From a plasmid: DNA of 41,714 nucleotides. Shown piece after piece: positions 37,920-41,714 of this stretch. Position numbers and translations under genes: made by a program. Position 1 is the first letter of the stretch. Every line of letters starts with the position of its first letter. The notes beneath the pieces are model-generated. The model was not told the origin of the DNA. It ran no database searches and was given only the letters and a program-made list of their open reading frames with translations. The stretch lies in assembly GCF_055900595.2 (NCBI RefSeq), contig NZ_JBVWEU010000004.1; one strand, given 5' to 3'.

Positions 37920-38146
37920 GGCTCAAAACGTCCTTCATCGCTGACCACATCCTCACGCTCCGCCATAAAGTCCGGATCGGCCCTGTCCAGCTGCGCGAAC
38001 GAGCCCCAGGTCGGCCGGACGGGACGCAGAATGATGCTGTCCCCTTCCCGGACGATCTCCAGCTCGCTGACGCCGTCAAAATCCAGGTCCCGGGGCAGAC
38101 GGATGGCGCGGTTATTGCCGTTTTTAAATATCGAAACTGTGCGCAT
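37916..38146 (-). CDS. vapB: VapB antitoxin (AbrB/SpoVT family)
   Basis: 76 aa, MRTVSIFKNGNNRAIRLPRDL; closely resembles plasmid VagC/MvpT antitoxins as I recall them. Confidence 0.85.
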   Translation of the reverse strand: MRTVSIFKNGNNRAIRLPRDLDFDGVSELEIVREGDSIILRPVRPTWGSFAQLDRADPDFMAEREDVVSDEGRFEP

Positions 38147-38719
38147 GGTTTTTCCTCATATGCTGAGTGTGCCAGGGAGTATTCCCGCATAGGTGAAGTA
38201 TATGCCTGCAAGCCCGGCTTGTATAGGTGTTACATATGCAGATGGTAGGTATATGCGTATGCTTTGCCTATGCAGATGCCCGGCATATGGATATGTTACA
38301 CCTATGTTGGTTTCTCACTTTTCCCGCTCAGATCCGAAAAAAGGCAGTTCCGGATCTGATTCAGCCCCGCCGGCGCGCAGCGGCCCGGAAACACAAGATG
38401 TAGCGGTGTTTCCAGCTGTCAGTGACCATATATGTTGTGTCCCTCCCCTGCCCCGTGACCGGCCGCTCACCACCCTGAAAGGGCGCTGTGGTTATTCCGT
38501 GTGCGTGGTACACTTCCGGAAACTGTGGAATAACATAAAAGTCGGATCCGGCCAGAGCGGCCGTCAGGTAATTTAATTACGTTGTTATATGGCTGCTTAT
38601 TATTTTAGTATGTGAAAATCACTCTAGTGAAAGTCACTGTCACGACAGAGTGGCACTCATCTGACGATGATTGAGGTGTGGTAAAATTGCACGGCTAACT
38701 ATTCAACTGAGGAAAGGAC

Positions 38720-39070
38720 ATGTTTACTGCATTCAATGAGAGAAATGATTTCAGTTATGCTTTTGAAAAAATCCGTAATGCGATTTCCGCGCCAGGAGAA
38801 AATAATCTTTATGCTGCAACAGAATTAGGTCTTGGCATTCTGCTCCGTAAATACGAGCAGTTTCGCCAGGAACTGGATGCGGCCGGTGAGCTGGGAAACT
38901 GGGAATATGATCTCGATACCTACAATCACTGTATTGCGGTGCTGCAACGTTACTTCACCGGCAATCCATCCGGACTGACAGAACGTGATGCCCGGATTTA
39001 CAGCCATTACCTGCAGACTGAGCACAAAAGGTTTGTGAAACTGGCTGAAGAGCTGGCTGCCGGCCGCTGA
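38720..39070 (+). CDS. Hypothetical protein (116 aa), first gene of an uncharacterised operon
   Basis: Clean ORF; no recognisable motif; acidic, predicted soluble. Confidence 0.5.
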   Translation: MFTAFNERNDFSYAFEKIRNAISAPGENNLYAATELGLGILLRKYEQFRQELDAAGELGNWEYDLDTYNHCIAVLQRYFTGNPSGLTERDARIYSHYLQTEHKRFVKLAEELAAGR

Positions 39071-39120: not shown

Positions 39121-39864
39121 ATGACTGATATACAGGCCGCAACTGAGAGTATAGTTGCTGCGACATCCCATCCGGTTTCCGTACAGCTGATTAATCAAGG
39201 GGCGGGGATCTGGGGAAACGTGGCAACCGGGCTTATCACTGGCCTGCTTACTGGGGGTATAACACTCACTGGCATCTGGCTGACACATTATTTCACGCTT
39301 AAGCGTGAGAGACAGGCGTCAGAAGATAAAATGAAAAAGGAACTGCATTACATTGCCACCGAGTTGGTATTCATGCTTGAACGGTATGCTGAGGGTTGTT
39401 TCCGGGTTGTGACGGATGACGGCCAGGATGATGATGCCCCCCAGCCTGAGAGAAAAGCTGTCACGAATTACCCTGAACTGAATCTGATCGATGTCTCCGG
39501 TGACTGGCGGACTTTAGAGCCACGTCTTATGTATCGCATCCGTGAACTGCCGGTGCTCCAGGATGAGGCCCACAGGGCAATTGCATATGCCGCCGAATAC
39601 TCCGACCCTCCTTGGCATAAGGACTATTTCAGGGAACGGCAGTATCAGTTCACGCGCTTGGGCATCAACGCTGTCATTCTTGCCGTCCGTCTGCGCAAGG
39701 CAACCGGGATGCCCGAAACACGTCTTACAGGTCATGATGAATGGTCTGCAGTTTCCGTGTTTCGTAAAGTCTGGAGGCGCGAAAGAGCCCTGCGCGCTGC
39801 TGAAGCTACCCGCAACAGGGAGTGGAATCAATTAGTGATACCTGATGGAATGTCAAACCAATGA
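39121..39864 (+). CDS. Hypothetical membrane-anchored protein (247 aa)
   Basis: One predicted transmembrane helix (GNVATGLITGLLTGGITLTGIWLTHYF) followed by a charged domain; stop overlaps the recombinase start (ATGA). Confidence 0.55.
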   Translation: MTDIQAATESIVAATSHPVSVQLINQGAGIWGNVATGLITGLLTGGITLTGIWLTHYFTLKRERQASEDKMKKELHYIATELVFMLERYAEGCFRVVTDDGQDDDAPQPERKAVTNYPELNLIDVSGDWRTLEPRLMYRIRELPVLQDEAHRAIAYAAEYSDPPWHKDYFRERQYQFTRLGINAVILAVRLRKATGMPETRLTGHDEWSAVSVFRKVWRRERALRAAEATRNREWNQLVIPDGMSNQ

Positions 39865-40637
39865 GCGGCCTCTTATCATATTCTCACCCGCAGCAGCCGG
39901 CGCAAATGCCGGTGGCCATTGACTATCCCGCCGCGCTGGCCCTGCGCCAGATGGCGCTCGTTCAAGATGAACTACCGAAATACCTGCTGGCACCGGAAGT
40001 CAGCGCCCTGCTCCATTATGTGCCCGATTTGCACCGCAAGATGCTGCTGGCAACCCTCTGGAACACCGGCGCACGTATCAACGAGGCGCTGGCGCTGACC
40101 CGGGGGGATTTTTCGCTGGTGCCACCGTATCCGTTCGTGCAGCTGGCCACGCTTAAGCAGCGCACCGAAAAAGCGGCCAGGACAGCCGGCCGAGCTCCCG
40201 CCGGTAGCCAGGCTCATCGTCTGGTTCCGCTTTCCGATCACCACTACGTCAGCCAGCTGCAGATGATGGTGGCCACCCTGAAAATTCCGCTGGAAAGACG
40301 CAACAAGCGTACCGGCAGAACAGAGAAAGCCCGCATCTGGGACATCACCGACCGGACAGTACGGACCTGGATTGGCGAAGCGGTTGAAGCGGCCGCCGTC
40401 GACGGGGTGACATTCTCGGTGCCGGTCACCCCGCATACGTTCCGCCACTCCTACGCGATGCATATGCTGTATGCCGGCATACCACTGAAGGTTTTGCAGA
40501 GCCTGATGGGCCACAAATCGATTAGCTCGACGGAAGTCTATACGAAGGTGTTCGCACTTGATGTTGCTGCGCGGCATCGAGTTCAGTTTCAGATGCCCGA
40601 AGCGGATGCGGTAGCCATGCTGAAAGGGAATATTTAA
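39861..40637 (+). CDS. Tyrosine site-specific recombinase (Xer/ResD-like; possible plasmid multimer resolvase)
   Basis: 258 aa; conserved C-terminal catalytic region HTFRHSYAMHML ... LMGHKSISSTEVYTKV (R-H-R-Y family). Confidence 0.8.
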   Translation: MSGLLSYSHPQQPAQMPVAIDYPAALALRQMALVQDELPKYLLAPEVSALLHYVPDLHRKMLLATLWNTGARINEALALTRGDFSLVPPYPFVQLATLKQRTEKAARTAGRAPAGSQAHRLVPLSDHHYVSQLQMMVATLKIPLERRNKRTGRTEKARIWDITDRTVRTWIGEAVEAAAVDGVTFSVPVTPHTFRHSYAMHMLYAGIPLKVLQSLMGHKSISSTEVYTKVFALDVAARHRVQFQMPEADAVAMLKGNI

Positions 40638-40694
40638 GTACTTAGGAGAATGATGCTGGCGAACGTCCTGCTCGCCGGGGAGGTCTGTCAGACG

Positions 40695-40952
40695 TTATCT
40701 GGACCAGCTGACGGGAATATCTGCTCTGTATTCTTCATACTGCTCATAGATCGCATGCTGAAGCATCGTAATACGTTCTGACAACCTGTTGGCGTCCGAC
40801 ATATGCCGCCATTCCCCCTCAATAGTGGTTTTCTGTCCATCCGGGAGATTGAGCGTGATCAATACCTTTGTATCACGAATAATCACCCCGTCAGTGAAAG
40901 AATTAAGACCACTCCTTACGGTATTATCTATCTGTATAGTTTCAAGTTTCAT
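40695..40952 (-). CDS. Hypothetical small protein (85 aa)
   Basis: Strong Shine-Dalgarno (AGGAGGTAACAAG) 7 bp upstream of ATG; no recognisable domain. Confidence 0.45.
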   Translation of the reverse strand: MKLETIQIDNTVRSGLNSFTDGVIIRDTKVLITLNLPDGQKTTIEGEWRHMSDANRLSERITMLQHAIYEQYEEYRADIPVSWSR

Positions 40953-41510
40953 CTTGTTACCTCCTGTTGACCGGATCCCAAGCATAGATATCTGAATTCA
41001 AATTGCCTAGTGAAATGTCTGGATATGCCGCATTTTTCCCCTTATACAGCGAAGCTGGCCAAAGGCCAGCCCGCTTGGATTTATCGCTTTTGCCAGTAAA
41101 TCAGCATGGCAAGGAACAGGATTGTTGCCCCCTGAGAAGCGGTCAGGAAAGTTTCCAGCAATGACATTATCGTAAAACTCCGCATTATTCAGGTGTGTGA
41201 TTCAGGGGCCTTAGTCCCCCTTTTACAGGACGTAGTGTTCTGTCACGACGGAAGCCAGGGTTAATAAAAACGATTCGAATATGTCTGCAGGGACGATAGA
41301 AATCTTCGTGCGGGTTGTCTCGCTGTAGCCGGCTCTGGAGAGCGACTCGGGGGAGGAGTAGTATCTTCCGGCCACGGATATGATCGAGCCAGCAGTGCTC
41401 GCCGCAGTCGAGCGACAGGGCGAAGCCCCGAGTGAGCGAGGAAGCACCAGGGAACAAAACTTATAAATTCTGCTTACGCTCAATGCCTGAAAAATCACCT
41501 CCCCTCGGGG

Positions 41511-41528
41511 TTATCCACTTATCCACGG
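41511..41528. promoter_or_regulatory. Two tandem DnaA boxes (TTATCCACT, TATCCACGG)
   Basis: Seen directly; followed by an AT-rich tract, as in RepE-type origins. Confidence 0.55.
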
Positions 41529-41590
41529 GCATATTTTTATAAAGTACTTTTTTATTCTTTTTCTTTATTTTACATCTTTTAGGGAGCCTG
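41529..41590. promoter_or_regulatory. AT-rich tract (candidate DNA-unwinding element of the origin)
   Basis: About 60 bp of more than 80 percent A+T immediately after the DnaA boxes. Confidence 0.4.
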
Positions 41591-41626
41591 AAAGCCGCGT
41601 ACAGTGCGGCCTGAGAGGGGGCCTGT

Positions 41627-41714
41627 ATGGGCAACTGGTAAACATAATATGGGAAATTAATCACGTATCAGTGGGTTTTGTGTCAACAAGCTATGGGATA
41701 TGCATCAACAAGCT
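41627..41714. repeat. Four 22-bp iteron-like units each starting (A/G)TGGG; a fifth unit would be 1-22 if the sequence is circular
   Basis: ATGGG/GTGGG at 41627, 41649, 41671, 41693, and the window starts ATGGG exactly 22 bp after the last; units 3 and 4 share TCAACAAGCT. Confidence 0.45.

Follow-up and report, generated by a model that had tools for sequence, protein, structure and literature searches.

The window analysed here is the whole 41,714-nucleotide stretch of contig NZ_JBVWEU010000004.1 (NCBI RefSeq assembly GCF_055900595.2). It is a circular resistance plasmid of the IncR type, cut open where repB is annotated to begin, and near-identical records are typed as IncR. The repB gene (1-867) encodes a 288-aa initiator with Rep3_N and Rep3_C domains. 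At the other end of the window, the backbone runs in the order vapC, vapB, a 116-aa ORF, a 247-aa ORF, ResD, the interval under study (40638-41510), DnaA boxes, AT-rich DNA, direct repeats and then repB. The interval is ordinary plasmid backbone, in which an orphan small gene is followed by DNA of F type that flanks an iteron origin on its left. Relative to the F plasmid, IncR carries an insertion at 40638-41075 that comprises the small gene, referred to here as orf85, the DNA upstream of it and a hairpin. The interval probably holds two unrelated things, namely a genuine mobile gene, orf85, and the left flank of the IncR origin with an ssiA or n'-type primosome assembly site as its core.

ResD, encoded at 39861-40637, is a 258-aa tyrosine recombinase with a Phage_integrase domain. 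The protein shares 88% amino acid identity with ResD of F, while the third codon positions of the two genes are just 51% identical. The resD and orf85 genes are convergent and are separated by a 57-nt spacer (40638-40694) lying between the resD stop at 40637 and the orf85 stop at 40695. Stable hairpins are predicted in this spacer, with a minus-strand RNA fold of -19.9 kcal/mol (z = -2.65); a terminator scan detected no canonical T-tract terminator within 40638-40694. On the strength of the predicted folds, the spacer may be a terminator region.

The orf85 gene occupies 40695-40952 on the minus strand and encodes the 85-aa RefSeq hypothetical protein WP_000764642.1. A sequence-only reading of this DNA had described an 85-aa minus-strand ORF with a strong ribosome-binding site and no recognisable domain, and both parts of the description hold. 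The Shine-Dalgarno sequence AGGAGG is read at 40960-40965 on the minus strand, 7 nt before the ATG. ORF lists also contain an alternative 96-aa version starting from an upstream in-frame ATG; the extension is interrupted by a stop codon in the related plasmid L008, and the 85-aa start is therefore the conserved one. Searches against Pfam, NCBIfam and PADLOC gave zero matches. The sole match in PHROGs is phrog_31850 (E = 1.9e-61), of which orf85 is a full-length member; this family has no assigned function, so membership explains nothing about orf85. A total of 68 database proteins match orf85. Relatives occur in Klebsiella, Enterobacter and Serratia, and the full-length ones, down to 68% identity, are all exactly 85 aa long. 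When 1.8 billion cluster representatives were searched with an HMM, the small family of orf85 itself was recovered and nothing else credible; four giant repetitive proteins that appeared in this search were discounted. With a pI of 5.25 the protein is acidic; it is also hydrophilic and soluble and has no membrane segment. The AlphaFold2 model (pLDDT 75) has an alpha-beta3-alpha-alpha layout, and a fold search with this model returned no specific match.

The missing domain and fold assignments are what one would expect if orf85 were a chance ORF and the whole interval non-coding. The evolutionary record of the gene argues strongly the other way. Pairwise dN/dS values of 0.23-0.56, at dS up to 0.9, indicate purifying selection, the length is constant over 68-99% identity, the ribosome-binding site is strong, and orf85 is found as a discrete gene in unrelated contexts. 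We consider a chance ORF exceedingly improbable. Three neighbourhoods of orf85 were observed: between resD and the origin, between parM/stbB and umuDC on an Enterobacter plasmid, and among other small genes in Serratia. The position between resD and the origin is confined to the IncR and L008 types. The DNA upstream of orf85 is unconserved across these contexts, the sole element kept in distant homologues being a GGAGG/GAGGA motif. As judged by these comparisons, orf85 is a genuine protein-coding gene that moves independently between plasmid contexts, and it stands outside the recombinase and origin machinery. Our best guess is that its product could be an accessory factor working via protein-protein contacts.

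Upstream of orf85, a GC-rich hairpin (AGCG-AA-GCTGGCC-AAA-GGCCAGC-C-CGCT) occupies 41048-41075, contains a perfect 7-bp stem at 41054-41070, and marks the left end of the homology to F. Its predicted folds have energies of -19.1 and -21.7 kcal/mol (z about -2), and no T-run follows it; the hairpin may be a transcription insulator or terminator. It is conserved together with its surroundings. The segment 41053-41119 is 95-97% identical in the related plasmids L008 and L012, whose resD genes are only 84-89% identical; 41053-41200 is conserved at 95-100% in L008, L012 and L003; and 41053-41320 shows 92-100% identity between IncR and L008/L012, compared with just 84-89% for the flanking genes. A second dyad, the mini-hairpin GGGC-GAA-GCCC (GGGCGAAGCCC), lies at 41418-41428. 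The GC-rich dyads that had been pointed out in this region are thus present, at 41054-41070 (extendable to 41048-41075) and at 41418-41428. Perfect-stem hairpins of at least 6 bp number one (counted under two loop sizes) versus 0.95 ± 1.15 in shuffled sequences, so they are not above chance, and the dyads are notable for their conservation, not for their number.

The DNA that follows the hairpin, at 41076-41320, is homologous to the resD-ori2 intergenic DNA of F, with about 74% identity to F-type plasmids (measured across 41165-41313) and a conserved core from about 41165. Conserved blocks shared with F within this segment are CATTATCGTAAAACTCCGCATTAT, GTAGTGTTCTGTCACGA, AAAACGATTCGAATATG and ATAGAAATCTTCGTGCGG. 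A variable linker that is unalignable with F then extends over 41321-41386. Taken as a whole, the alignments indicate that the stretch from about 41076 to 41545 is an F-type module of the same descent as the resD-ori2 spacer of F, a kinship that the sequence-only reading had not seen.

The region 41000-41460 had been described as holding only weak or repeat-driven ORFs; in agreement with this, no domain match was found for any ORF between 40953 and 41510, and RefSeq annotates just a 34-aa ORF. Two others, at 90 and 91 aa longer than this one, overlap the conserved non-coding block; in the DNA that they cover, the F homologue differs by indels of 2, 17 and 1 nt. The annotated ORF (41081-41185, minus strand; RefSeq hypothetical protein) encodes the hydrophobic peptide MRSFTIMSLLETFLTASQGATILFLAMLIYWQKR and persists across the IncR family, where a 9-nt indel leaves its frame intact. 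The homologous DNA of F encodes an unrelated peptide past residue 7, and in plasmids L011 and L028 the peptide is truncated after residue 7. The DNA motif CATTATCGTAAAACTCCGCATTAT at the start of the ORF is kept in L011 and L028 despite this truncation. Loss of the peptide with retention of the motif shows that it is the DNA or RNA that is constrained rather than the peptide, and by this comparison the product is probably not a conserved protein. No good ribosome-binding site can be read before the first ATG. The 34-aa ORF was also considered as a membrane peptide or type I toxin-like gene; this candidate was rejected on account of the unconserved peptide in F and L011/L028 and the missing ribosome-binding site.

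A rival reading is a minus-strand transcript that would start from about 41200 and run toward orf85, acting as a small RNA or as a leader with the 34-aa ORF and the hairpin, and regulating orf85 or protecting the origin. The layout lends itself to such a transcript, since the minus strand presents, in order, a small ORF, a strong conserved hairpin and orf85. The RefSeq annotation of the 34-aa ORF, its retention in the IncR family with an in-frame indel, and the 95-100% conservation of 41053-41200 in L008, L012 and L003 point in the same direction. Searches for the expected signals were discouraging, however. No Rfam match (Rfam 15) was obtained within 40638-41714, even at E <= 10; promoter-like sites number 3 versus 1.5 ± 1.3 expected, with no terminator-like site; and the hairpin has no T-run. 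Moreover, conservation of the 34-aa peptide does not extend to F, and in L011/L028 the peptide is cut short while the DNA motif at the beginning of the ORF survives; the upstream DNA does not accompany orf85 in other contexts. A consensus fold of the homologues of 41076-41400 gave no convincing structure. We find such a transcript improbable, and the small RNA that had been offered as one option for 41000-41460 gains no support from the Rfam, promoter, terminator or folding results. RNA structure and covariance analysis had been proposed as a check; the folding half yielded this unconvincing consensus, and the most conserved part of the region, described below, is too invariant for covariation.

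Between the linker and the origin lies a 69-nt block at 41387-41455 on the plus strand (AGCCAGCAGTGCTCGCCGCAGTCGAGCGACAGGGCGAAGCCCCGAGTGAGCGAGGAAGCACCAGGGAAC), which appears to be a homologue of the PriA-type primosome assembly sites of F ori2 and ColE1/pMB1. The mini-hairpin GGGCGAAGCCC is within this block. Sixty-eight of the 69 positions are identical in F (NC_002483, around 48018-48087); at a per-site identity of 74%, the chance of such a match is 2e-8. When the IncFIB(K) and ColE1-type versions are compared, homology reaches further, to about 41482. The block is also found beside IncFIA, FIA(HI1)-type, IncFIB(K) and rep_cluster_1418 replicons, where 64-68 of 66-69 aligned positions agree. 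The flanks of the block in these four replicon types are unalignable, and the block boundaries are sharp and constant. The corresponding initiators share no more than 33% identity with IncR RepB, or do not align with it at all. In an alignment of eight replicons, the block is invariant at 57 of its 69 positions, compared with 10 invariant positions in the 17-nt tandem DnaA boxes. These alignments mark the block as the most strongly conserved non-coding element of the IncR, IncFIA, IncFIB(K) and rep_cluster_1418 iteron replicons.

The block is abundant in sequence databases. A 71-nt query found it in at least 5000 plasmid records, many of which contain two or three copies, and a 156-nt query spanning the block and the DnaA boxes matched 1807 of 5426 complete E. 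coli genomes. Among the plasmid and E. coli matches listed, no annotated feature covers the block. When each species was represented by a single genome and scanned with a pattern, which fixed the central 24 nt so that only the block flanks count there as independent evidence, the block was confined to Enterobacterales, apart from tiny contigs resembling vector contamination. A search of a phage collection, made for the non-coding DNA, returned no match. Folded as a single strand, the block forms a long imperfect hairpin with GGGC-GAA-GCCC at its tip (-12.3 kcal/mol, z = -1.2); the F and ColE1 versions have z values of -1.7 and +0.4, respectively. The fold test does not discriminate, because the proven ColE1 site is also unremarkable. 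The hexanucleotide AAGCGG is typical of n' sites in the factor Y literature. It is absent from the block, which has AAGCAC and GAAGCC, and occurs only at 41137-41142.

In IncFIB(K) plasmids, the block follows umuC at a distance of 18 nt, and no recombinase lies close by. Its presence beside origins that lack a recombinase shows that it belongs to the origin, not to ResD. This bears on the resolution site that the sequence-only reading had listed among its options. A multimer resolution site for the adjoining ResD could in principle be sought in the non-coding stretch, given that the recombinase gene is adjacent and that dyad symmetries lie within the stretch. Such a site is better placed elsewhere, as DNA homologous to F oriV1/rfsF is found at 38310-38570, upstream of the recombinase operon, and is preceded by an array of 3.4 copies of a 17-bp repeat with a palindrome at 38221-38309. 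An earlier description of IncR likewise located rfsF between vagCD and resD (PMC9412624). The rfsF-like DNA (38221-38570) has no significant similarity to 40953-41510; when the region 38140-38725 was compared with that stretch, the score was 12, against 11.5 ± 1.1 for shuffled sequences. A resolution site within the interval is very unlikely.

The origin proper starts just past the interval, with two tandem overlapping DnaA boxes (TTATCCACT / TTATCCACG) at 41511-41527 on the plus strand that are identical to the boxes of F ori2. The distance from the block to the DnaA boxes is about 56-60 nt. The intervening spacer (41456-41510) is 77-86% identical to that of L008/L012, and from 41455 through the DnaA boxes IncR and F share about 90% identity. 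AT-rich DNA follows the boxes at 41528-41600, and direct repeats are found at 41638-41707 as two 26-nt copies that are 73% identical; downstream of repB, a 36-bp unit is repeated 10.5 times. DnaA boxes, AT-rich DNA, direct repeats and a Rep3 initiator, the components of an iteron-type (Rep3) origin, are thus all present, at or past the right edge of the studied interval.

The closest counterpart of this arrangement is the RepFIA replicon of F, in which an ssiA site lies beside ori2 (also called oriV-2 or oriS). A primosome assembly site at mini-F ori2 is reportedly the subject of a 1983 paper by Imber, Low and Ray, according to its title. In addition to the 68/69-nt match and the same tandem DnaA boxes downstream, the two plasmids have in common a resD orthologue on the left (88% amino acid identity) and, on the right, an iteron origin with a Rep3-family initiator. 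They differ in the specificity of the initiator and iterons, RepB being 32% identical to RepE, and in the presence of orf85 and the hairpin between resD and the spacer in IncR. In PLSDB, the features of the F plasmid between 45000 and 50500 are CDS only. For F-type RepFIA, the literature puts ssiA directly before the DnaA boxes of oriV-2 (PMC4398462). The probable identity of the block with the mapped F site draws on its position and on the ColE1 homology.

The second counterpart is the ssiA or n'-pas site of ColE1/pMB1 plasmids such as pBR322, a site for PriA (factor Y). A query of pBR322 sequence downstream of the origin was 100% present in many ColE1/pMB1-type plasmids. In one of these, L018, RNAI maps to 555-656 on the minus strand, and RNAII would hence run rightwards with the RNA/DNA switch near 1100. 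When 40638-41714 of the window was aligned with a 2.5-kb ColE1-type origin region, the best local alignment fell at L018 1216-1265 on the RNAII-sense strand, with a score of 28 compared with 13.7 ± 1.3 for shuffles. This segment lies some 110-165 nt past the inferred RNA/DNA switch on its downstream side; in pBR322 numbering, ssiA is at 130-177 nt. The IncFIB(K) copy aligned with the ColE1-type region over 100 columns with a score of 42. The match to IncR is colinear and covers 49 window bases with one gap; the common stretches are GCTCGCCGCAG..CGA.CGAC and AGTGAGCGAGGAAGC, and in both systems the origin adjoins. The central segment differs, being GAGCGCAGCGAG in pMB1 and GGGCGAAGCCC in IncR, and the AAGCGG motif is found in ColE1/pMB1 whereas the IncR block has AAGCAC. 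The orientation also differs. In ColE1/pMB1 the homologous strand has its 5' end toward the origin, but in IncR and F it is the 3' end. In ColE1 the strand is displaced by leading-strand synthesis by Pol I, whereas opening in IncR depends on Rep and DnaA. A lagging-strand ssiA, or n'-pas, is known downstream of the pMB1 RNA/DNA switch (PMC3167613).

Taken together, the alignments make it highly probable that the IncR block is the same element as the ssiA sites of ColE1 and F. Single-strand initiation signals, a resolution site and a small RNA had been the three options raised for 41000-41460. The first is favoured by homology, through the 68/69 identity of 41387-41455 to F DNA upstream of the ori2 DnaA boxes and through the alignment with ColE1/pMB1 ssiA, and the other two fall away. 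Lack of conservation in related plasmids had been named as the outcome that would speak against a functional region; the region is strongly conserved in them.

From the homology, extreme conservation and position of the block, we infer a dependence on PriA, an active strand and a direction of synthesis in IncR. In this model, RepB and DnaA at 41511-41527 would open the adjoining AT-rich DNA, and leftward unwinding would render the plus strand of the block single-stranded. PriA would recognise the folded plus strand, upon which PriB, DnaT, DnaB/DnaC and DnaG would be assembled. Primers laid down on the plus strand would be extended leftwards, away from the origin, and would start or reinforce synthesis on the left side, comparable to the ssi near R1 oriR or downstream of the ColE1 origin. 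A G4-type ssiA is said to have been found downstream of oriR in plasmid R1 by Masai and Arai in 1989. The R1 site resembles the proposed arrangement in lying beside an origin opened by Rep and DnaA, on a strand that serves as template for synthesis directed away from the origin; it differs in needing primase alone and in having a sequence unrelated to the IncR block. A second reading with the same orientation is that DnaB loaded on the plus strand would move rightwards, which would reload helicase for forks that come from the left toward the Rep-bound iterons.

A reconstituted mini-F replication system reportedly works in vitro without PriA. The ssiA site may therefore be dispensable, which fits awkwardly with the extreme conservation of the block. 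This tension leaves some room for a reason other than PriA behind the conservation, in that the block could be a platform for another host factor that aids origin opening, or a hinge that frequent recombination between co-resident replicons keeps identical. Besides PriA reportedly being unneeded for mini-F replication in vitro, there are hybrids of the L008 type in which an IncR-like left arm is fused, just past the DnaA boxes, to iterons and RepE resembling those of F, and many records carry two or three copies of the block. On the other hand, the block has sharp, constant boundaries amid unalignable flanks, whereas gene conversion is expected to drag along flanks of variable length, and the relationship with the ColE1 ssiA region suggests a single-strand signal that is both ancient and functional. 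We rate an explanation of this type as unlikely. We likewise attach a low probability to a related and more far-reaching proposal, in which the block would carry an unrecognised near-essential function in vivo, at the first fork after plasmid entry or in restart at Rep-bound iterons, or would act as a recombination hinge for swaps of initiator-iteron cassettes. A PriA-type primosome assembly site is the reading we prefer.

On this reading, the core of the left flank of the IncR origin appears to be an unannotated copy of a kind of primosome assembly site known since the 1980s. Current concepts are unchanged by these findings, and orf85 joins the conserved small plasmid proteins that lack an assigned function. 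What the identification supplies is a name for a 69-nt element that at least 5000 sequenced plasmids and one third of complete E. coli genomes contain, and that bears no annotated feature in the records listed. Naming the block as an ssiA of the F/ColE1 type labels the left-hand flank of the origins of IncR and IncFIB(K) plasmids, which are carriers of much clinical antibiotic resistance. The ssiA-like block also defines content to be expected of a minimal IncR replicon, and it flags priming by PriA as a host-dependent step that may be a weak point of these plasmids.

The stretch 38221-38570 consists of a long palindrome and a tandem repeat, CATATGCAGATGCTAGG (17 bp x 3.4, 38233-38289), and then a homologue of F's oriV1/rfsF region, which in F lies upstream of ccdA; this stretch is probably the true target site of the IncR tyrosine recombinase ResD. 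Directly 5' of resD (39861-40637), and overlapping it by 4 nt, lies a plus-strand gene for a 247-aa protein (39121-39864), which PADLOC matched to PDC-S67, a candidate phage-defence family (E = 3.6e-45). In F, this slot is held by ccdAB.

The profile of the orf85 family, named for the 85-aa minus-strand gene at 40695-40952, also matched four very large proteins of 1299-5178 aa (P0069, P0074, P0077 and P0082). Each match is made up of many short, repeated segments and probably reflects coiled-coil or low-complexity sequence. An exact copy of F-type ssiA/ori2 was found on very short contigs in assemblies of Streptomyces marokkonensis, Nitrolancea hollandica and Aquimarina agarivorans, and a Haemophilus sputorum assembly contains a 2.7-kb contig identical to IncR. 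The most likely source of these contigs, recorded as loci L023, L025, L031 and L021 from genome_contigs, is contamination with a BAC/fosmid vector or a plasmid.

Three DnaA-box-like sites lie within the 5' end of annotated repB (30-71): positions 30-47 hold two of them in inverted orientation, TTATCCACTTGTGGATAA, and the third is at 63-71. In addition, the annotated RepB has 66 residues ahead of its Rep3_N domain, which starts at residue 67, and is 37 aa longer than F RepE. The true start of repB may therefore lie downstream of the annotated one, and the origin may continue beyond position 1. The 22-bp repeats TCAACAAGCTATGGGATATGCA at 41683-41714 continue into the repB start. They are separate from a 36-bp x 10.5 array downstream of repB (958-1336), which is what the IncR papers call 'iterons'.

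Among the related loci, L008-L010, L011 and L013 are hybrid plasmids, in which an IncR-like left arm (resD, orf85, the non-coding spacer, the primosome assembly site homologue ssiA and the DnaA boxes) is joined to an F-like right part, which comprises AT-rich DNA, iterons and the gene for a RepE of 251 aa. The two parts meet just past the DnaA boxes, which suggests that modules are exchanged at this conserved segment.
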